From the NCBI GenBank assembly GCA_047946875.1, contig CP181398.1:841041-905040 (forward strand): DNA of 64,000 bases, written 5' to 3'. Within the stretch, counting starts at the first letter, position 1; each line of letters starts with the position of its first letter. This DNA comes from Candidatus Kerfeldbacteria bacterium. Its GTDB lineage: Bacteria; Patescibacteriota; Patescibacteriia; UBA10025; JAHIVO01. Below, piece after piece: positions 16,930 to 47,347 of this stretch. The notes under the pieces were generated by a model. The model was not told the origin of the DNA. It did not search any database and saw nothing but the letters and a program-made list of their open reading frames with translations. The position numbers and the translations under genes were made by a program.

Positions 16930-17160
16930 TATCATACATCTACCTTAACATCTTATGTATGAAGGAAACCGGTTAGAATCCGGTGCTGTCGCGCAACTGT
17001 ACTCCATAATTTTTATGGTAAGCCAGGTCGATCATACATAATTATCTTGCATATTTATTTCATAATATGCATTCTCTTCGCGTAAAAAGAGATGGGTAAT
17101 TGTTTATACAATTATGGTCGTCCAAATCCTTGTACTCGAAGTTAAGGATTTTTTTATAAA
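16930..17160 (+). promoter_or_regulatory. Cobalamin (AdoCbl) riboswitch with terminator-type expression platform
   Basis: GGAAACCGGTTAGAATCCGGTGCTGTCGCGCAACTGTA matches the cobalamin riboswitch core. AAGCCAGG B12-box-like segment. Terminator hairpin aatcctt...aaggatt + T7 at 17123-17157, just upstream of the DUF4430 gene. Confidence 0.7.
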
Positions 17161-33246: not shown

Positions 33247-36200
33247 ATGACTACTCCAGAAAAAGACAAAGAGGGAAATAATAATAATGAAAGTGACACT
33301 CCAGCCACACCTGAACTTACCGAAACAGAAAAGAAGCTAGTAGATGCTCAAGCAGAGCTAAGTTTTGATGATGTAGAATCAACAACACCAGATGAAATTG
33401 CTGATAAGACTAAAGAAAAAGCAGCAGGTGATGTCGACAAAATTAAGAGTGATTTTACCGACGCCGGAATAAATATAACAGATGTTCCAGAAGCTGAAGC
33501 AGTCATTGAAAGTGCTACAGATGCAGAGACAACTCTGGGAAAAAAAGTAGATAAAATACAGAACAATACAGCTACACCCGAAACAGAAAAAACATACACA
33601 CCCAGAGAAATAGAAAACTTGGAAAATGGTAGCGATACAGCAGTAACTGGAGAACACCTAACCATAAATACAGCTAAAGACTCCTCTATTACCGTAGAAG
33701 ATGATGCCAAACTAACAATTAATGAAGGGAGAGATAATAAAATTACAACACATGGTAGTGGTACTGCTAATATAAAATCAGGATTGGATAACGAAGTAAT
33801 TGTCGCAGAACCAAAAGATGAGAAAGAAGAAGAACCTAAATATTCAGTTGGACAAGAAGTGAGTTTTAGAAATGAATCATTTGATAGATATGAACCAGGA
33901 ACAATCAAATCAGTCCGTATAGATGACACAGGGAAGAAAAAATATACAATACACAATCCAGAAAATGGAAGAGTATTCCCAACAGAATTAAATGAGGAAG
34001 ATTTTGAAACACCTAAAGAAGAAGAAATACAGGATAATACAACTACACCCGAAACCGAAGAAACTCCAGAAGGCGAAATGCCGGTAGAAATCAGAGAAGC
34101 CAAAGAAAAAAGAAAAGAAATATATTCTGCAATCGAAGTGGGTGAAGAATCCATTCAATTACTGGAAAATAGTGATCGTAAATCATGGCTAGCCAAAACT
34201 ATTTCAAAAATAAAGAAAGCAATTAATCCCAAAACTGGTAAATATAATATTAGAGAAAGATTTGACAGCTCTTCATTAACAGGTACCGCAAAAGCTGAAG
34301 AAGGAACAATATCTAAAGAAGAAGGAATTCCTTCAGATGATATGATATCAATCATATTAGAGCGAGCAGAAAAAATTAAAGAAAGTGCCGAATTACCAGC
34401 CAATGAGCTCAAAAAAGATTTAACAAAAAGAGGTCACTATAAAAAATTAGATGCCGCTGATTCAATCAAACAATTGGTAACAGAAAAGATTAAAGAACAA
34501 GAACAAGCATCAATTAGACATTTTAAACAAGACGGAACCCTGGCAGTAGGAATGAAAAAAAACGGAAAAGGATTTACAAAAAATCATAAAGAATCTTTGG
34601 CAGGAAAAATAGTAACTGACATTTCTAATGATGACTACGATATTAATGCAGAACTTAACCAGATGGTTAGTAATCTTGATAATACCGCAGCAATATTGAG
34701 TGACAATAGTGATACATATCATGATGCAAGATATAAAGAAAACCCCAAAATGAGTGATGAAGAATATCAGACAATGCAAGAAGAAAGAATAAACAGAGAA
34801 GCAATAATTGCTGCAGGAGATTATCGTGGGGGTGAAAATGCAAGCGCAACTCTTGATATAGACAGTGCTCGTGAAACTTTGAATGGTCGTCTAGAATTAG
34901 TTATACCAGGAATATCAGATGAAGAAGAAGAATTGGATAAAAAACCAACTCCAGAAAAACCTAAACCAGAAGACGAAGAAGAAAAACCAACTCCAGAAAA
35001 ACCTAAACCAGAAGACGAAGAAGAAATAACTCCTAAATCTGAAGATGATGATGAACCTAAACCAGAAGACGAGAAAGAAGAGGAAATAAACATCAAGGGA
35101 GCAACTGATAAATATGCTGAAATGATTTCTAGAGGTAGTAAATTCTTCAAAGGTAAAAATTACGATAAAGATCTAGATCAAGCAAGAGAAGAATATGAGA
35201 CTTCTTTAATGCATTATTTAGATAAAGAAGTTAAAGAAAAACTAGATGGTATTGATCCTTTTGATCCTGAAAATCCTGAACATCAACAAAAATTTGCGGA
35301 GATAAATGAAGCGGTCATGGACCAAAGAGAAGCGCTTGGAGAAGCTATTAAAGAAATACATGAATCAACTGCTGGCAGAAAGTTCAAAAACTGGTGGAGA
35401 AAAAGTGCTAAACTTAGAATGGTAGCTGGTCTTACTTTGACAGGTGGAGCTATTGTAGCCGGTGCAACTGGTGCTGGTTTACCAATCACTGCAGCTCTTC
35501 TAGCTGGTAGAGTCGCTCTGTCAGGCGTAGGCACTACCCTAGCAGTTGAGGGTGGCTATGAATACGCAAGAACCAAATATGGTAAAACTAAAGAACTTAC
35601 GAGTAAGGAAGTAGATAAAATGAGTTTATCTGAGCTTGAGGATGCTTATGCGGCTCATACCATTAACTCATCACTCAAAGGTTTAGACAGAGGGCAAGAA
35701 GCCAGTTTCTCTGGAGGAGTTAATACTGAAAAAACATTTATTAAACCTGATGACATGTCTGACGCTAATTGGGACATATTATCAGAAAAAGATAAAAAGA
35801 AAATAGAAGGCATCGAAAAAGAATATATTAAACCAAAGATACTTCTGGACGCTGATTGGGATAAGTTATCAGAAAATAATAAGATGTTGAACCCACTTAT
35901 ATCAAGAAATAGGATTATTAAAGAAAGAAAGGATATAAAAATGATCACTGACAGACTTATGGTGCTTAAGGCAGAACAGTTTAAGGCTGATCTAGATGTC
36001 AAAAAAGAGACAGGTGAATCAGACAGTGATATTGCATATGATGTTATCATGAACAGTATGGATACTTCTGAAAAGGATGCTGACAAAAAACTTGAAGGTA
36101 GAAATGCTGCAATATTAAAAAGTAATAAAAAGAAATGGACTATCGCAGTAGCTTCAGGATTAATCATGGCAAGTGTAATCGGGGTGAGAGGATTTAACAA

Positions 36201-37830
36201 CTTACCGGAAACACCAAAACCAACCACCGAAGATGTACCAGAAGCAACTCCTATACCAGAAGAGACTCCTATAGTTGAAGATGTACCAGAAGCAACTCCT
36301 ATACCAGAAGAGACTCCTATAGTTGAAGATGTACCAGAAGCTTTTGATGGTGCTGTAACTATTGAAAAGGGTGATAACTTATGGAACATAATTAAAGATC
36401 AAGTCAAAACCCAAATGGGTGAAGAAAAATGGGATGCTCTTGGCGAAGGACAACAAACTCATTTAATTGATCAATTCAAAGACACTGTAGCTGATAATCC
36501 TGGGGCGTTTGGACTAGAAAACCCAGATAATCTAGAAATTGGTCAGCAAATTGATCTATCCTCTCTTTATGAAAAAGGTAGCGAACTTGGTACAGCTCTT
36601 GAATCGTCAGCAACCCTTACAGAAAGTCAGTTAGAAAATATAACCGCCAATAATGATACATTGCAAGATTGGGTAACAGACAATCCAGGTAAAAGATTAA
36701 CAAGTGAATTGGTTAATGAAATTTTAAGTGATGATACAGTTGACTCCGACATAGGAGCTGCTTCTGAAGCAGTAGATGGTGCAGCTGCTACAGCTGAAAC
36801 TGCTACTGAAACTTCTGCAGAAGGTGCAGCTAAAAATATAACTAATAGTACCTCAACTACCGAGACAATGACAGATGTTGCTGATACTTCAGAAGCTTCT
36901 GAAGTTGCAGATGGTGGGGATGAGACTGTTACAGAAACAGCACCTGAAGCTGTAGAACAGGCAAAAGAGTTACTGCCAGTGAATGAAAATTGGAAAGAAT
37001 TGAAAAAACTTAGAGAATCTACAAAATACCTAACTAGTAGAACGTTAGACAGAGTGACTGATATGAAAGTACAAGACTTTGTTAAAGGTGAAATACTGGG
37101 TTCGGATGGAAATCCAGTAGACCTCCAAGATCATTTATCCAAAATGGAGGGCTTCAATAATAATGAAGCGAAAAGTTTTGTAAAAAACATGAAGAGTTTC
37201 ATTGAGCATGTTGGCAAAGAAGTTGGTAATGTTGATAGGAACTGGACTGTAGGTGAATTTAGTCAGAAAACTGGATTAATAGGTCCTGATGGTCCAATCG
37301 CATCCCCTTCAATCGGTAGTGGTCTAGATCGATTCCAAGAAGCAGGTGAACAAGCAACAGAATCATTTAAAGACAAATTAACATCTGCCGACGCCTCATT
37401 AGGTGAAGCTCCGACTGATCAACTAGCCGAATTACAAGCCAGTAACGCTGATACGGTAGCTCAATCACAAAAAGTCTCTGCAAACGTTAACGAAGTGCTT
37501 AATACTAAAATCCCAGTTGAAGCTGATATGAAAGATTATTTATCAATCCAAGAAGCAACAAATAGTATTGATGAAAAAACTATGGAATATCTGACCGACC
37601 ATCTAACATTAGATGATATTATAAAAAACAAAGAAGCCGTATTTAAAGGCGATACCATTAATGTTAAAGAAATACTTTCAAGATTTGAAGGTATGAATGA
37701 TAAGCAGGCAAAAGGGCTAATAAGTGGAGTGAAGGGATTATATAAGCAACTCACCGGGCAAGGTTATCCTATCAACACGAATATGACCTTAGGAGAGTTT
37801 AGTAGCAAGATAGATATAATAGAAAAATAA
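33247..37830 (+). CDS. Giant (1527 aa) acidic repeat-containing surface/membrane protein with LysM-like segment
   Basis: Highly acidic low-complexity protein. Two predicted TM regions (MVAGLTLTGGAIVAGATGAGLPITAALLAGRVALSGVG and WTIAVASGLIMASVIGV). Tandem peptide repeats. LysM-like motif VTIEKGDNLWNIIKDQ...NPDNLEIGQQIDL. Intrinsic terminator at 37846-37874. Confidence 0.7.
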   Translation: MTTPEKDKEGNNNNESDTPATPELTETEKKLVDAQAELSFDDVESTTPDEIADKTKEKAAGDVDKIKSDFTDAGINITDVPEAEAVIESATDAETTLGKKVDKIQNNTATPETEKTYTPREIENLENGSDTAVTGEHLTINTAKDSSITVEDDAKLTINEGRDNKITTHGSGTANIKSGLDNEVIVAEPKDEKEEEPKYSVGQEVSFRNESFDRYEPGTIKSVRIDDTGKKKYTIHNPENGRVFPTELNEEDFETPKEEEIQDNTTTPETEETPEGEMPVEIREAKEKRKEIYSAIEVGEESIQLLENSDRKSWLAKTISKIKKAINPKTGKYNIRERFDSSSLTGTAKAEEGTISKEEGIPSDDMISIILERAEKIKESAELPANELKKDLTKRGHYKKLDAADSIKQLVTEKIKEQEQASIRHFKQDGTLAVGMKKNGKGFTKNHKESLAGKIVTDISNDDYDINAELNQMVSNLDNTAAILSDNSDTYHDARYKENPKMSDEEYQTMQEERINREAIIAAGDYRGGENASATLDIDSARETLNGRLELVIPGISDEEEELDKKPTPEKPKPEDEEEKPTPEKPKPEDEEEITPKSEDDDEPKPEDEKEEEINIKGATDKYAEMISRGSKFFKGKNYDKDLDQAREEYETSLMHYLDKEVKEKLDGIDPFDPENPEHQQKFAEINEAVMDQREALGEAIKEIHESTAGRKFKNWWRKSAKLRMVAGLTLTGGAIVAGATGAGLPITAALLAGRVALSGVGTTLAVEGGYEYARTKYGKTKELTSKEVDKMSLSELEDAYAAHTINSSLKGLDRGQEASFSGGVNTEKTFIKPDDMSDANWDILSEKDKKKIEGIEKEYIKPKILLDADWDKLSENNKMLNPLISRNRIIKERKDIKMITDRLMVLKAEQFKADLDVKKETGESDSDIAYDVIMNSMDTSEKDADKKLEGRNAAILKSNKKKWTIAVASGLIMASVIGVRGFNNLPETPKPTTEDVPEATPIPEETPIVEDVPEATPIPEETPIVEDVPEAFDGAVTIEKGDNLWNIIKDQVKTQMGEEKWDALGEGQQTHLIDQFKDTVADNPGAFGLENPDNLEIGQQIDLSSLYEKGSELGTALESSATLTESQLENITANNDTLQDWVTDNPGKRLTSELVNEILSDDTVDSDIGAASEAVDGAAATAETATETSAEGAAKNITNSTSTTETMTDVADTSEASEVADGGDETVTETAPEAVEQAKELLPVNENWKELKKLRESTKYLTSRTLDRVTDMKVQDFVKGEILGSDGNPVDLQDHLSKMEGFNNNEAKSFVKNMKSFIEHVGKEVGNVDRNWTVGEFSQKTGLIGPDGPIASPSIGSGLDRFQEAGEQATESFKDKLTSADASLGEAPTDQLAELQASNADTVAQSQKVSANVNEVLNTKIPVEADMKDYLSIQEATNSIDEKTMEYLTDHLTLDDIIKNKEAVFKGDTINVKEILSRFEGMNDKQAKGLISGVKGLYKQLTGQGYPINTNMTLGEFSSKIDIIEK
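34942..35025 (+). repeat. Tandem 42-bp coding repeat x2 (KPTPEKPKPEDEEE) plus a degenerate third unit
   Basis: aaaccaactccagaaaaacctaaaccagaagacgaagaagaa repeated perfectly at 34942-34983 and 34984-35025. Confidence 0.8.
36229..36341 (+). repeat. Tandem 48-bp coding repeat x2.3 (EDVPEATPIPEETPIV)
   Basis: gaagatgtaccagaagcaactcctataccagaagagactcctatagtt at 36229-36276 and 36277-36324, with a partial third copy. Confidence 0.8.
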
Positions 37831-43136: not shown

Positions 43137-43228
43137 TGGCGGAGAGAGAGGGATTCGAACCCTCGAAGGAATTTGACTCCCTTACTTGCTTTCCAAGCAA
43201 GCGCACTAGACCACTATGCGACCTCTCC
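43137..43228 (-). tRNA. tRNA-Ser(GGA)
   Basis: rc GGAGAGGTCGCATAGTGGTCTAGTGCGCTTGCTTGGAAAGCAAGTAAGGGAGTCAAATTCCTTCGAGGGTTCGAATCCCTCTCTCTCCGCCA. Anticodon loop UUGGAAA. Long variable arm. Encoded CCA. Confidence 0.85.
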
Positions 43229-43233
43229 AAGTC

Positions 43234-43485
43234 TTATTTAATATCAGATCGCAACATTTCTTTAAATTGAATTCCACCTTTAAAGCTTTTTATCATTAAT
43301 TCTCTCAAGTAAGCCTCCGATTTTGACTTAAACATTTCTTTATAAATTATTATCCATGGAATACCAGACTTTGTTGATCTTACAGAGCCACTATTATGTT
43401 TTTTAAGTCGTGCAATTAAATTTTTAGTATGTCCAATATAATGCTTTCTATTTTTTTCACTCTGTAAAACATAAGTAACAAACAT
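43234..43485 (-). CDS. Small stand-alone GIY-YIG nuclease (UPF0213/YhbQ-like)
   Basis: FVTYVLQSEKNRKHYIGHTKNLIARLKKHN matches the GIY-YIG motif in an 83-aa protein. Confidence 0.7.
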   Translation of the reverse strand: MFVTYVLQSEKNRKHYIGHTKNLIARLKKHNSGSVRSTKSGIPWIIIYKEMFKSKSEAYLRELMIKSFKGGIQFKEMLRSDIK

Positions 43486-43529: not shown

Positions 43530-43566
43530 CAAGCAAGCGCACTAGACCACTATGCGACCTCTCCAA
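43530..43566 (-). repeat. 37-bp perfect direct repeat of the tRNA-Ser 5' half (copy 2; copy 1 = 43194-43230), bracketing the GIY-YIG gene
   Basis: caagcaagcgcactagaccactatgcgacctctccaa occurs at both sites. Copy 2 lacks the rest of the tRNA and is followed (on the minus strand) by two GC hairpins (CCCGCAAAGCGGG, TGCCGCTCTGCGGCA). A further short remnant GGAGAGGTCC sits at ~43655. Confidence 0.8.
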
Positions 43567-43841
43567 ATTTAACTACTATAAAATATCTTATTTCATCATA
43601 ATCACTAGCATAAGGACATTTATATTATGCGCCTGCCCACCGAAGCATAGCAAAGGTGGGACCTCTCCTTATTTTAACTAAAAATAGCCAAAAATGCTAC
43701 TAATTCAGTATACCATAGCATTTTTATTCACAAAAGAAAAGGTCATAATAAGCCAATTTTGCATAATTTTATAAATATACTTGACTTATATTAATAATTT
43801 GCTAAGATGGGTGCTGGAACCTAGTATTAGGAGGGAGTAAT

Positions 43842-44102
43842 ATGATTCCATTTGACACTTTAGCTGTCATTGGGTTTATTATTCAGCCCTTTCTAATCTC
43901 TAGCCATCCGATCCTGTTGGAGGACGAAAATCGTCTCTCGGACAGGCAACTGGCAAGTGCTATTCTCTGCGGAGATTTACGATACGGTCCCGAGTGGACC
44001 AATATCGAGCGCTGCCAAGTATTTTTCCCAAATGTTGAAGAAGCCCATGATGCAATTGGTCTGCTTGGGAATCGTGATTGGCTAGAGGGTAGGACCTCAT
44101 AG
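43842..44102 (+). CDS. Module A of a tandem duplicated element: 86-codon ORF (or structured RNA) with its own promoter, strong SD and terminator
   Basis: TTGACT-N17-TAAGAT promoter (43786-43815), AGGAGG SD 7 nt before ATG, ~50% GC body, terminator AGGGCGG...CCGCCCT + U-run at ~44167-44212. Near-identical to module B except a 45-nt patch. No family recognised. Confidence 0.35.
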   Translation: MIPFDTLAVIGFIIQPFLISSHPILLEDENRLSDRQLASAILCGDLRYGPEWTNIERCQVFFPNVEEAHDAIGLLGNRDWLEGRTS

Positions 44103-44279
44103 GGTTTGGAGTTGTTGTAACTCCATTGTTGCTCTTGAGGAGAGGGTTGGTTCTACCCAACAAAAAAACTAGGGCGGCTCCTTTTTAGAAACCGCCCTAC
44201 TTTATATTGTTTTTGAAAATATTCAGGACAGCTAAAATTAATTAATAAAAAACCCATCTTCACATTTGTAATGACGGGT

Positions 44280-44465
44280 TTATTCTTTTGACGCCTTGCT
44301 CGTTTCATCTTTCACCTTCTTTTTTTCTTTGTTCCGATCGTATCCTTTTTCACCCTTTTTTTCTGAATGTGGTCCACCAGTTTGTTTTGGTAGTGGGATA
44401 CGACCATGTAAACGTTTAAAACGTTCTAGGTCAGTTTCTTTTTTCTTCTTTTTCTTTTTTGACAC
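44280..44465 (-). CDS. Lys-rich small basic protein (61 aa, GTG start)
   Basis: AAGGAG RBS + GTG. A divergent TTGACA promoter overlaps the module-B promoter. Terminator hairpin at ~44239-44272. Confidence 0.35.
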   Translation of the reverse strand: MSKKKKKKKETDLERFKRLHGRIPLPKQTGGPHSEKKGEKGYDRNKEKKKVKDETSKASKE

Positions 44466-44614
44466 TTTTTACTCCTTTATTTTGAAAGTGACAATTTATT
44501 ATTACTTATTTTATGCCCAATGTCAAGTATATTTATAATATTATTCAAAACTCTTGACATATACCATTAACCTGCTAAGATGGGTGCTGGAACCTAGTAT
44601 TAGGAGGGAGTAAT

Positions 44615-44875
44615 ATGATTCCATTTGACACTTTAGCTGTCATTGGGTTTATTATTCAGCCCTTTCTAATCTCTAGCCATCCGATCCTGTTGGAGGACGA
44701 AAATCGTCTCTCGAGCAGGCAACTGGCAAGTGCTATTCTCTTAGGAGATTTACGATACGGTCCCGAGTGGACCAATATCGAGCGCTGCCAAGTATTTTTC
44801 CCAAATGTTAAAGCAACATCAGGCATTTGTTATCGGCCCCGGGAACGTGAATGGCTAGAGGGTAGGACCTCATAG
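44615..44875 (+). CDS. Module B of the tandem duplicated element (paralog of 43842..44102)
   Basis: Identical promoter (TTGACA-N17-TAAGAT), SD and first ~190 nt. Internal 45-nt segment replaced. Conserved 3' region and terminator (~44940-44985). Confidence 0.35.
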   Translation: MIPFDTLAVIGFIIQPFLISSHPILLEDENRLSSRQLASAILLGDLRYGPEWTNIERCQVFFPNVKATSGICYRPREREWLEGRTS

Positions 44876-45007
44876 GGTTTGGAGTTGTTATAACTCCATT
44901 GTTGCTCTTGAGGAGAGGGTTGGTTCTACCCAACAAAAAAATTAGGGCGGCTCCTTTTTAGAAACCGCCCTACTTTATATTGTCTTAAATTGTTTAATTC
45001 TCCATAA

Positions 45008-47347
45008 CTACTGAACTTTGTGGTAAGTACCCAAAGTAGTAGCCTCTTTGATGCACTCGGAAAATATCAATGGCACCATTTCCTCTTCACTTTGCAAAAA
45101 TGTACTCGCATTACCGATGATTATCAAAGCATCTTCAGCACGAGACAATGCAACACGCAACCGATTTATATTCTTATTAAAACCGATTTTGCCGTTGGTA
45201 TTTGAGCGTACAAAGCTGAGAATAATCACTTTTCGCTGTGATCCCTGGAAAGCATCCACTGTATTTACCGATTGGTATAATATCCTGCGGATAGCTGCTT
45301 CAGTCATGTCAGCAGTTTTTCTCCACTCTTTCAGTCGCCTATCCATAAACAGAGCATCTCGCAGTTTTCTTCTAATCAGATCAATCTGCGCCCTGTATGG
45401 AGTAATTGTGGCAACATCTTCCAGACTATAGCCTTTTAGAAGAAGTTTCACAATACGCTCAACAACGATATTAGCCTCACGACTGTTCAGATAAGAAGTT
45501 CCCTTCCTTTCCTCTTCGTTATCTTGCGCACCTGAAGTGTCAAAGAAAGAAAAATATCCGTCATCATCAGTATCAAACCTCCCGGGTATCAGCATTCCTT
45601 TATAAAAAAGTCTGCTAATAAGCCTGCAAATTACAGGCAATGACCTTCTGTTAACATTTAACAAATTAACAGGAAGCAAACCCATAGAGATAATGCAGTT
45701 GAACCACCCCTTGGAAAAGTTATCAATATCTATCGGAGAAAAACCAGCATGACCCAGATGCTCTCTGGCATCAGGAACAATATCAATATTTCCAAGCTGC
45801 TCGGGATCACCTATAAACACAATCTTGCCAGTTGTTTGCTGGACAATGGGAAGGATTTCAAAAAGAAATCCTCTAGATGCTTCATCAATAAATGTCAGAT
45901 CAAAGCTATATCCCAATTTCCTCAATGCATTCAAGGTGCGATCAACGAGAAAGGAAGACATTGTACAAGCCAATACCACATTACTGCCACCATAAAGCAT
46001 ATTATCAATTTTTTTAGTTTCTCTCTTTGACAATTCGCTGTCCGTATTAGCCTTCTCACTGTCTCTGAATTCGTCATTTACCACAAATCTTGTGGAACGA
46101 TGAAAACTTTTCCCGGGATCAGTTATACTGTCTGCATTGTTTCCAAGCCTGAATATTAAATCTTCATTGCCAATACCCTTAGATACGAAAGAAACTAAAT
46201 TATCCGTACCTTGGTTGCTGTGTGACACAAGAAGAGTTATCCTATTTTGGAGCCATGACTGCTTTATGGCCAAGGAAGTCATAAATGACTTACCTGTTCC
46301 AGCAGGACCCTGCACAAGAACAATACCTCTATTACTAGCAAAGCTAGACAGAGACAATAGCTGCGAACGGTCTTGGAAAAGCATACGGGCCTGAAATTTA
46401 TCAAGAGATAACGAGTCGTACTGCTCTGCACCGTTGTTGTGCTGAACACCCGACATAATGCGATAAGACAATGAAAATTCATCATCATCCACCAAACTAG
46501 TACATAGATCATACTGAGCTTGTGCAATACCGCTACTCACTTCTCTCTTAAATTGAACGATGTCATTGACAGCGAACCTTGGAATAGGTACGGGAAAAGA
46601 AACAATTATTTCTTCTTCGCGTACGGATTCAACAATAGCTGAAATTTCTAAGCCTCTGGAATTAAAAAAGATAATTACATTATCTTCATAAAAAACTGGC
46701 ATTCCACGAAACATAAATTCTTCAGTTATTGGAATCGTCACCCTCTTGACCTTGGGCGCTTTTTTCTTCCCTCTTTTCAAAGGAAATTTGAATCCTATTG
46801 AAAAAGCAAGATGATCAATCCCTTGGAGCCACCCCAAATACCATTCCAGATAAGAAACCGAAACTCTAAGCATTGGACTAAAAAGATCCAAACTCAGTTT
46901 TTGGTCTGGAATTCCGGTAGGACCGAGAGAATGCACCTTAGAATAGTTACATCCCTGATCTGGTGTATGATCAAAAATTATTGGCAAAGGTTCTATAACC
47001 TGACCAATAAGTCCAACAAACTTATCCCAATCTCCTTCAAAATAATGGACATCATAATGCCCATCTTCATGAATAACGAAAATCTGTGGAGAAAAACTCT
47101 TCTTCCCCCCGCCTCGACACAGTATCACCTGCGTATCAGGAAATTCCTTTTTAATAGGAATCGCTACGGTTTCAAGACTTTCATTTATGATGACAATCAG
47201 ATCCGGATTACCTTCTATCTTATCAGGTTTCTTCTCACTGCTTGTTGTGAAGGGAATTTGTCTGCGTTTCAGCTGATCACTGAACACATTATCTCCCCCA
47301 CGTGCAATGAAGAGAACAGATTTGAAACTGAACTCTGGATTTTGCAT
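45008..47347 (-). CDS. Upf1-like superfamily 1B helicase (AAA_11/AAA_12 type) with ~330-aa N-terminal domain of unknown function
   Basis: Walker A LVQGPAGTGKSF. Motif II LTFIDEASRG (DEAS). C-terminal NTVDAFQGSQRKVIILSFVR and RLRVALSRAEDALIIIG (motifs V/VI of Upf1/DNA2-like helicases). Local GC is about 43-45%, well above background. Confidence 0.7.
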   Translation of the reverse strand: MQNPEFSFKSVLFIARGGDNVFSDQLKRRQIPFTTSSEKKPDKIEGNPDLIVIINESLETVAIPIKKEFPDTQVILCRGGGKKSFSPQIFVIHEDGHYDVHYFEGDWDKFVGLIGQVIEPLPIIFDHTPDQGCNYSKVHSLGPTGIPDQKLSLDLFSPMLRVSVSYLEWYLGWLQGIDHLAFSIGFKFPLKRGKKKAPKVKRVTIPITEEFMFRGMPVFYEDNVIIFFNSRGLEISAIVESVREEEIIVSFPVPIPRFAVNDIVQFKREVSSGIAQAQYDLCTSLVDDDEFSLSYRIMSGVQHNNGAEQYDSLSLDKFQARMLFQDRSQLLSLSSFASNRGIVLVQGPAGTGKSFMTSLAIKQSWLQNRITLLVSHSNQGTDNLVSFVSKGIGNEDLIFRLGNNADSITDPGKSFHRSTRFVVNDEFRDSEKANTDSELSKRETKKIDNMLYGGSNVVLACTMSSFLVDRTLNALRKLGYSFDLTFIDEASRGFLFEILPIVQQTTGKIVFIGDPEQLGNIDIVPDAREHLGHAGFSPIDIDNFSKGWFNCIISMGLLPVNLLNVNRRSLPVICRLISRLFYKGMLIPGRFDTDDDGYFSFFDTSGAQDNEEERKGTSYLNSREANIVVERIVKLLLKGYSLEDVATITPYRAQIDLIRRKLRDALFMDRRLKEWRKTADMTEAAIRRILYQSVNTVDAFQGSQRKVIILSFVRSNTNGKIGFNKNINRLRVALSRAEDALIIIGNASTFLQSEEEMVPLIFSECIKEATTLGTYHKVQ

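Follow-up and report, generated by a model that had tools for sequence, protein, structure and literature searches.

Type I toxin mRNAs, as they are described in T1TAdb, measure 150-400 nt, encode hydrophobic peptides of 20-60 aa and are countered by cis- or trans-encoded antisense RNAs of 60-200 nt (PMC8594479), and aapA1/IsoA1 of Helicobacter pylori provides an example in which the toxin mRNA undergoes long-distance folding (PMC5416894, PMC6733600). Here we analyse a stretch of 64,000 nt from contig CP181398.1 of a Candidatus Kerfeldbacteria bacterium (hereafter "the window", to which all positions refer), in which two nearly identical modules, each with its own promoter, small open reading frame (ORF) and terminator, stand next to the gene of an Upf1-like helicase. 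Other described systems provide further points of comparison. Ibs/Sib are near-identical tandem paralogues whose variable regions serve a cis-encoded small RNA as sites of antisense pairing; in the dual-function RNAs SgrS/SgrT, RNAIII/hld and SR1/SR1P the ORF and the regulatory structure are largely separate; SecM, MifM, VemP and ApdA/ApdP are monitoring peptides that act by ribosome arrest. We interpret the modules of the window as separately transcribed, covarying structured RNAs that at the same time serve as mRNAs of a conserved small ORF and that form a helicase-linked family in one clade of Patescibacteria, and we consider this interpretation highly probable.

The original prediction for this part of the window, two near-identical modules, proves correct. 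The direct repeat copies A (43780-44213) and B (44553-44986) are ~430 bp long and offset by 773 bp, and two blocks within them (43780-44040/44553-44813 and 44068-44213/44841-44986) show 96% identity each. The transcribed bodies are 98% identical outside a hypervariable patch (7 mismatches in ~365 nt), and a base-by-base comparison adds 6 mismatches in the promoter -35/spacer region (43786-43799). The promoters have the TTGAC(T/A)...TAAGAT form that had been proposed, with a spacer of 16 nt instead of 17 and with an extended -10 TG in addition; the Shine-Dalgarno (SD) sequence AGGAGG and the ATG are where they were expected, and both 86-codon frames are open. The hairpin-rich 3' region indeed ends in an intrinsic terminator, and the terminators of both copies are bidirectional, because their hairpins also qualify as canonical terminators when the minus strand is read. 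Likewise the modules are richer in GC than their background, although the rounded values of 50% against 30% become 45.7% (A) and 45.2% (B) against 32.9% for the window. The predicted transcripts run over ~370-400 nt from their predicted start to the terminator. The features are as follows.

43781..43808, plus strand: promoter of module A (TTGACT, 16 nt, TAAGAT, extended -10 TG)
43829..43834, plus strand: Shine-Dalgarno sequence AGGAGG of module A, 7 nt upstream of the ATG at 43842
43842..44102, plus strand: small ORF of module A, 86 codons and stop, with the hydrophobic N-terminus MIPFDTLAVIGFIIQPFLISS
43885..43906, plus strand: 5' strands of the long-range (LR) helix of module A, AGCCCUUU and UCUCUAGCCA
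43913..43950, plus strand: H2 hairpin of module A, CCUGUU...GACAGG, and the conserved GGCAAC motif
43952..44016, plus strand: mid (M) domain of module A, closing stem GGCAAGUGCU/AGCGCUGCC with two internal hairpins
44022..44074, plus strand: P-var hairpin of module A, U-rich/CCC paired with GGGAA, with a variable apex
44037..44078, plus strand: hypervariable patch of module A, 23 of 42 positions unlike copy B
44079..44088, plus strand: 3' strand of the LR helix of module A, UGGCUAGAGG, whose end lies 11 nt upstream of the stop codon (44100-44102)
44103..44161, plus strand: 3' domain of module A, with a hairpin at 44107-44125
44141-44148, plus strand: AGAGGGUU in the 3' domain of module A, predicted partner of 43885-43892
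44149-44159, plus strand: GGUUCUACCCA in the 3' domain of module A
44170..44199, both strands: bidirectional terminator hairpin common to module A and the Lys-rich ORF
44280..44465, minus strand: Lys-rich ORF of 61 aa with GTG start, between the modules, in this lineage only
44526 to 44498, minus strand: promoter of the Lys-rich ORF, near-consensus (TTGACA, 17 nt, AATAAT)
44554..44581, plus strand: promoter of module B (TTGACA, 16 nt, TAAGAT, extended -10 TG)
44582..44986, plus strand: transcript body of module B, with the elements of module A shifted by +773
44615..44875, plus strand: small ORF of module B, 86 codons and stop
44810..44851, plus strand: hypervariable patch of module B, the P-var apex
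44943..44972, both strands: bidirectional terminator hairpin common to module B and the helicase gene
45008..47347, minus strand: helicase gene, 779 aa, convergent with the modules

The differences between the copies outside the patch spare the structure: the ggac/gagc change (GA->AG opposite UU) turns U-A/U-G into U-G/U-A with pairing kept, the gc/ta change (UGCG->UUAG) falls in a tetraloop, and one further change lies in a hairpin loop.

Homologues were found through synteny of the helicase gene and then by helicase-alignment scans of GTDB genomes and JGI metagenomes (fetched loci are named L001-L103). The family comparison comprises ~26 modules, and all loci with modules belong to Patescibacteria. 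Two of the fetched loci, L001 and L002, are the same strain, and a 37-nt difference in module B of L001 was discarded as a variant since it is a scaffold N-gap. The helicase has few full-length relatives, and those accompanied by modules (L003, L004, L006, L007, L010-L021, L090, L094-L096, L103) are 28-47% identical. One or two modules lie downstream of the helicase gene, in convergent orientation, at 21 of 21 assessable loci including the window; most relatives possess a single copy at the same syntenic position. In L003 and L004, for example, the gap behind the helicase gene holds an opposite-strand, GC-rich element with the same promoter, SD, ATG and motifs and with a shared terminator, and L006 likewise has a module downstream of the helicase. 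The promoter layout CTTGAC...TAAxxT recurs upstream of homologous modules. A composite signature of promoter, SD/start, H2 hairpin and GGCAR, applied to 1.12 Mb of fetched DNA, finds modules solely at loci of this helicase clade and none elsewhere in the window, and by the same signature ~140 homologues related through the helicase core alone have no modules nearby, apart from a few chance matches. The two genes stand tail to tail with the terminator as their only shared element, and the adjacency is kept even where the remaining flanking genes differ. The convergence of the array on an Upf1-like helicase gene, already mentioned in passing in the original prediction, thus extends to the family as a whole, in which the helicase is the invariant partner.

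The gene order of the window, Wzy-GroES-GroEL-MamF-PPDK-helicase-module-tRNA-Ser-...-DnaG-RpoD, is that of L003 and L004, whose helicases are ~45% identical to that of the window: both have Wzy-GroES-GroEL-x-MamF-PPDK-helicase on one side, and in L003 the order runs on past the module and tRNA-Ser to DnaG-RpoD, while the contig of L004 ends just beyond the module. The modules are therefore part of conserved chromosomal synteny and not of a tRNA-associated island, as had been suggested. In the distant subfamily (see below) we also observed a gene for RNase Y divergent from the module, in L103 (5898-7412, plus strand) and, by eye, in L020, L094, L095 and L096. With the helicase convergent and RNase Y divergent, the module in this subfamily is therefore flanked by two genes of RNA metabolism.

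Structural constraint was compared within two subfamilies, that of the window (window, L003, L004, L010, L006, L011, L012, L013, L015, L090, L018) and a distant, shorter one (L007, L016, L017, L019, L020, L094-L096, L103); across the family the transcripts measure 270-460 nt. The architecture was derived for the window subfamily from minimum-free-energy folds together with anchor motifs, and the folds of copies A and B have z-scores of -5.75 and -5.4 against shuffled sequence. In the resulting plan the promoter is followed by an SD region with predicted partial pairing, by the AUG and by the 5' strand of the LR helix. This helix encloses H2 (CCUG...CAGG) and then GGCAR, a mid domain with its own stem, and P-var, a hairpin on a U-rich/CCC base; after its 3' strand follow the stop codon (0-15 nt past the strand), the 3' hairpins and the terminator. 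Pairing between 5' and 3' regions is predicted in both window copies, and the 3'-domain motif GAGGGUUGG.CUACC is common to window module A and L003. The SD is predicted to be mostly paired, with a mean unpaired probability of 0.20 compared with 0.36 over all positions.

The strands of the LR helix are unlike across lineages, yet they remain complementary (UCUCUAGCCA/UGGCUAGAGG, CCGAGGCC/GGCCUCGG, CCCCAGGCC/GGCCUGGGG), and complementarity is kept in further strand pairs as well (CCUGGCACGCC/GGCGUGCCAGG, CCCGCA/UGCGGG, GUCUCCC/GGGAGAC). Because MAFFT misaligns such covarying strands, alignment-free duplex tests were used, in which each 5' window was paired either with its own 3' window or with that of another module (derangements). 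For the LR helix the cognate mean is -24.4 kcal/mol as compared to -18.7 +/- 1.0 for swapped pairs, and 0 of 7389 derangements are as stable as the cognate set; for the closing stem of the mid domain the values are -18.6 and -15.0 +/- 0.9 (0 of 7376). RNAalifold on MAFFT alignments recovers just H2 and part of one LR helix. In the distant subfamily it finds both H2 and an outer helix (UUUGUAGCY/RGCUACAAA), and 9 of the 14 pairs carry compensatory changes; a second helix, ACCCAAUU/AAUUGGGU, is visible by eye around P-var and the stop codon. Constraint at the nucleotide level is also apparent in the motifs. GGCAR spans frames 0, 1 and 2 across members (it reads R-Q or G-Q in most, G-N in L015, L090 and L018, and Q-A in L019), and ACCCAA and GCA show no variation at third codon positions, whereas positions 1 and 2 change in the codons between these two motifs.

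The small ORF shows constraint of its own. In 26 of 26 modules the frame that begins at the start codon remains open up to the same point of the structure, and SD and start are detected in 24 of them, the two modules of L007 being without a recognisable SD. Dinucleotide shuffles stay open with a probability of 0-0.2 each, and the other five frames contain 0-12 stops, mostly 1-9. The ORFs encode 56-121 aa (86 aa in the window). All those of the distant subfamily end in [K/R]-x-P-P-stop, with codons that vary synonymously, CC(U/G) CC(U/G/A/C) UA(A/G). In frame-agnostic nucleotide alignments the synonymous share of codon differences is 22.8% in the ORF frame and 15.1% and 13.1% in the shifted frames. 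Over the first 25 codons the Kyte-Doolittle mean of 15 residues reaches a maximum of 1.74, while the two shifted frames give 0.86 and 0.60, and codon position 2 is rich in U (0.44); the hydrophobic stretch is limited to the N-terminal 15-20 residues. Because of the conserved frame, the synonymy at the PP-stop, the synonymous excess and the hydrophobic N-terminus we read the ORF as probably translated; its product is, judged by its sequence, probably membrane-targeted. The constraint on the peptide sequence is weak. The original prediction had left structured RNA and small protein as alternatives and had named covariation and frame conservation among homologues as the checks. Both readings apply together: the helices covary, in the alignment-free tests and with RNAalifold in the distant subfamily, and the frame is conserved with a modest synonymous excess.

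A side observation concerns the end of the distant-subfamily ORFs, where the motif GCCUCCUUA(A/G) is similar to the 3' end of 16S rRNA (anti-SD). It could bring about slow termination, pairing with the SD of the module itself, or both.

The patch in which the two window copies differ (44037-44078 in A) has 23 substitutions in 42 positions without an indel; the number of mismatches and the constant length had been noticed before, with the size given as 45 nt. As the conserved P-var base UUCCC...GGGAA brackets the variable block in both copies, the patch corresponds to the P-var apex; it also codes for a segment near the C-terminus of the peptide. The apex is hypervariable throughout the family and not in this genome alone. 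It measures 30-41 nt, and conservation is lowest there in 4 of 4 tandem pairs (window, L096, L007, L017) and also in the orthologue pairs L011/L012 and L004/L010, with identities of 39-58% in the patch and 56-100% in other segments of the paralogue and orthologue pairs. In some tandem loci the downstream 3' region diverges besides the patch. In L096 the copies share 98% identity over promoter and 5' untranslated region and 100% over the part of the ORF that precedes the P-var base, and diverge thereafter; within the patch they keep G-Y-T-G despite three synonymous changes. Since the bodies of the window copies are 98% identical while their promoter spacers drifted, the body must be under constraint, gene conversion, or both, from which the apex escapes. 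Tandem copies that differ in one hairpin apex arose repeatedly, in several lineages, which points to a specificity determinant. Variable and template repeats of a diversity-generating retroelement do not account for the patch: its substitutions (11 transitions, 12 transversions; adenine at the site in 6 cases in A and 8 in B) are not adenine-specific, and there is no reverse transcriptase among the adjacent genes. A conserved 26-mer of the module is absent from viral contigs.

The partner helicase consists of an N-terminal REC-like domain, a beta-rich domain and an Upf1/IGHMBP2-like superfamily 1 core. Pfam assigns AAA_12 (1.8e-39) and AAA_11 (9.7e-15), profiles from the PDB match the core to NAM7/UPF1 and IGHMBP2 at E ~1e-35, and residues 326-756 match MkoA models (E 3e-62). 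For residues 1-325 (46373-47347, minus strand) the fold search gives a generic CheY-like receiver fold, which does not explain RNA binding. We read this domain as a pseudo-receiver because of an invariant Asn at the position expected for the phospho-acceptor Asp, a placement that we take from our own reading of the sequence. A receiver-like domain joined to an Upf1-like core may be an undescribed combination. The helicase thus shares the type of core with Upf1/NAM7 and IGHMBP2, but has the pseudo-receiver and beta-rich domains where Upf1 has a CH domain. The core also matches MkoA of Mokosh. However, no MkoB/PLD partner is present among the adjacent genes listed or scanned, the gene stands in housekeeping synteny (PPDK, GIY-YIG, DnaG, sigma-70, MamF/MmsF-like and GroEL/ES genes are nearby) rather than in a defence island, and the Pfam scan of the helicase finds only AAA domains of helicase type; a Mokosh system (MkoA+MkoB or fused MkoC) was rejected on these grounds.

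The modules form an undescribed family of RNAs with a small ORF that matches no known family, in accordance with the original prediction, which could not assign them. Neither the window modules (Rfam release 15, none near the gathering score at E<=10) nor those of 19 homologous loci match an Rfam family. The search of the window and these loci returned only tRNAs and one adenosylcobalamin (AdoCbl) riboswitch, all outside the modules, and the RalA antitoxin RNA model stays far below threshold on them. Transfer-messenger RNA and RNase P were considered and rejected, as there is no ARAGORN or Rfam match and no tRNA-like T-arm or P4-type motif is seen by eye. The module ORFs have no match in Pfam, NCBIfam or PADLOC. 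Against 5.8 billion clustered proteins the 86-aa ORF retrieves only itself, from a Candidatus Kerfeldbacteria metagenome-assembled genome (MAG); an exhaustive HMMER scan of 1.84 billion representatives yields P0002 as the sole non-self match, a low-complexity repeat protein that we regard as spurious and reject as a homologue. A profile of the distant-subfamily ORFs retrieves only its own query members from the protein database and has no Pfam match, and literature searches found no description of the module.

How fold, ORF and helicase might act together can be outlined only tentatively. The fold would hold SD and ORF closed, so that the peptide is made only once the structure opens, and a ribosome on the ORF would have to melt the whole junction and would terminate just beyond it. 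As the SD is mostly paired in silico and the ORF spans the junction, translation would depend on an opening of the fold and would also bring it about. The 5'-to-3' Upf1-like helicase may open or remodel the module RNA, or may be loaded or titrated by it, and the P-var apex would confer specificity on each paralogue. Such helicase-coupled gating is a possibility that we consider less likely than not; to identity and mechanism taken as one explanation we assign, as a compromise, an even chance. A bolder version is a two-component RNA system, in which a translated, highly expressed scaffold RNA would programme or gate the helicase toward specific RNAs by its ~36-nt apex, possibly with participation of RNase Y. 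We think this quite unlikely; if true, tandem paralogues would supply different specificities, and the system would amount to a bacterial counterpart of RNA surveillance centred on a helicase.

However, we also have to consider observations that count against a structured, translated and helicase-linked RNA. The module structures are all predicted computationally, MAFFT misaligns the LR helices so that covariation does not come from a full-length structural alignment, and the pairing of the SD is an in-silico tendency only. The coding constraint is weak (dN/dS, the ratio of nonsynonymous to synonymous substitution, 0.3-0.9 overall and 0.2-0.8 in pairwise comparison), and the codon differences of the window pair are all nonsynonymous (0 of 15 synonymous in the protein-guided, 0 of 9 in the frame-agnostic comparison). 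The window ORF ends in ...GRTS without the PP-stop of the distant subfamily, and the N-termini of L003, L004, L010 and L014 in subfamily 1 are only weakly hydrophobic. The link to the helicase consists in gene adjacency alone, between genes that are convergent and not co-transcribed. Finally, the patches have no match of >=12 nt in the window and no exact 20-mer match in IMG/VR that could indicate a target.

If the modules were ordinary genes of secreted or membrane peptides (pheromone-, bacteriocin- or effector-like), hypervariable near the C-terminus, the structure would tune stability or translation and the helicase would be a mere neighbour. Precursors of peptide signals typically combine a conserved leader with a hypervariable C-terminal part, the N-termini of the module ORFs, above all in the distant subfamily, resemble signal peptides or transmembrane segments, and the PP-stop synonymy, the G-Y-T-G kept in L096 and dN/dS below 1 in most pairs likewise agree with selection on a peptide. 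Yet the peptides are very poorly conserved in comparison with the invariant nucleotide motifs (ACCCAA...GCA, and GGCAR in three frames), the helices keep their complementarity in wholly different sequence while the synonymous excess is small, the helicase adjacency outlasts the change of other flanking genes, and inspection of adjacent genes revealed none for processing, export or a receptor; we regard this explanation as unlikely. The same peptides could belong to type I toxin mRNAs in the style of hok or aapA1, with a membrane-active product, translation blocked by the fold and the patch distinguishing the paralogues. Transcripts of 270-460 nt with own promoter and terminator, a hydrophobic N-terminus, tandem copies, a predicted paired SD and 5'-3' pairing all fit. 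The ORFs of 56-121 aa exceed the 20-60 aa of known toxins, however, and no antisense promoter is conserved: the consensus scan finds no site in 19 of 26 modules, and in the other seven the promoter-like sites differ in position and coincide only in the two window copies. Conservation is vertical, in housekeeping synteny with the helicase and not patchy, and Rfam, which includes several type I toxin-antitoxin RNA families, gives no match, so that we consider a toxin mRNA very unlikely.

Alternatively, the module could be a purely non-coding guide or scaffold RNA of the helicase, whose P-var apex pairs with target RNA or DNA and whose ORF is incidental. In all members the scaffold is constant and a single variable segment of 30-41 nt is exposed on it, always in the same place of the structure; the co-occurrence with the Upf1-like (MkoA-like) helicase is strict, and the codon differences of the window pair all change the amino acid. 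But the conservation of the ORF, with its SD, its start codon and the position of its stop, goes far beyond chance; PP-stop synonymy, synonymous excess and the bias to U at position 2 speak for translation, and the patches, a weak negative, find no counterpart in the window or in IMG/VR viral contigs; a guide without coding function appears decidedly improbable. Scarcely credible, in our view, is the interpretation as repeats of a mobile element (terminal repeats of a known element had been named as an alternative in the original prediction) or as a recent neutral duplication with one recombined segment. The adjoining tRNA-Ser with its duplicated 5' fragments and GIY-YIG ORF might be taken as a sign of mobility, and 98% identity of the bodies suggests gene conversion. 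This is countered by the presence of the module, mostly in single copy, at the same syntenic site in distant relatives, by the lack of transposases and integrases among the adjacent genes, by promoter spacers that diverged while the transcribed body did not, and by the independent restriction of divergence to the patch in L096, L007 and L017.

Several further observations concern the surroundings of the modules. The Lys-rich ORF with GTG start on the opposite strand was correctly predicted, including its own promoter. It is called as a gene in a public MAG, has no family match in Pfam, NCBIfam or PADLOC, and no counterpart was seen between the tandem modules of other loci inspected. On the other side of module A a tRNA-Ser(GGA) lies at 43137-43228 on the minus strand; an exact repeat of its first 37 nt occupies 43530-43566, and a third, weaker fragment is found at 43657-43681 (minus strand). 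A GC-rich hairpin follows each tRNA-Ser fragment, and an ORF of 83 aa with a GIY-YIG domain (43234-43485, minus strand) is located between the intact tRNA-Ser and the first fragment. Fragments of tRNA 5' ends with hairpins also adjoin the modules in L010, L011 and L013. The pattern resembles the trace that a homing element of GIY-YIG type or an intron would leave on tRNA genes, for which the tRNA introns of Patescibacteria offer a comparison (PMC13011429). Farther away, the aptamer of the AdoCbl (cobalamin) riboswitch occupies 16937-17073 (plus strand; 61 bits, above the Rfam gathering score), and an ORF of 1527 aa (33247-37830, plus strand) stands on the strand opposite to nearly all its neighbours. 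At this ORF, between 33 and 37 kb, the GC skew is sharply reversed locally and the AT skew is strongly positive (0.23-0.39).

Patescibacteria have tiny genomes, and very few regulatory RNAs have been described from them. The module has a near-consensus promoter and is conserved across lineages whose helicases are 28-47% identical. Even when read most conservatively, it represents a new RNA motif and a new small-ORF family, for which annotation pipelines now give a hypothetical protein. Upf1-like helicases are central to RNA surveillance in eukaryotes and their bacterial roles are poorly understood; we know of no RNA partner described for bacterial Upf1-like helicases of this group. If the coupling is functional, the module would provide such helicases with a concrete RNA partner, and it would be a further example of overlapping constraint from RNA structure and coding.

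Some described systems can be set apart from the modules. Guide RNAs of CRISPR, OMEGA (IscB/TnpB) or IS110 bridge type were rejected, as no such effector gene adjoins, and Rfam finds no match to CRISPR, HEARO or similar families on the modules. With arrest peptides the distant subfamily shares a signal-peptide-like N-terminus and a Pro-Pro-stop within RNA secondary structure; an arrest leader peptide is nevertheless not what the window encodes, since its ORF ends in GRTS and a terminator rather than a gene follows. Like Ibs/Sib, the modules are tandem copies that are nearly identical and differ substantially only in one short variable segment, a pattern suggestive of recognition specific to each paralogue, but they have no evident antisense gene, and the variable segment is a hairpin apex within the ORF.

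By analogy, the modules are most like the heavily folded type I toxin mRNAs (hok, aapA1) and dual-function RNAs. Both the modules and type I toxin mRNAs are short, independently transcribed and terminated RNAs of a few hundred nt that are structured throughout, with a predicted sequestration of the SD, a hydrophobic peptide N-terminus, frequent tandem paralogues, and an RNA structure that is conserved at least as well as the peptide. In mRNA size, promoter and terminator the window modules agree with the description in T1TAdb, while some family members reach ~460 nt; the ORFs lie outside its range of peptide sizes. They differ further from type I systems in that a scan for consensus promoters finds no conserved antisense promoter for an antitoxin RNA and in that the locus is vertically inherited and linked to the helicase. 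With dual-function RNAs the module has in common that one transcript is constrained as RNA and as mRNA. In the modules, however, these two layers are not separate: the ORF traverses the entire covarying junction.

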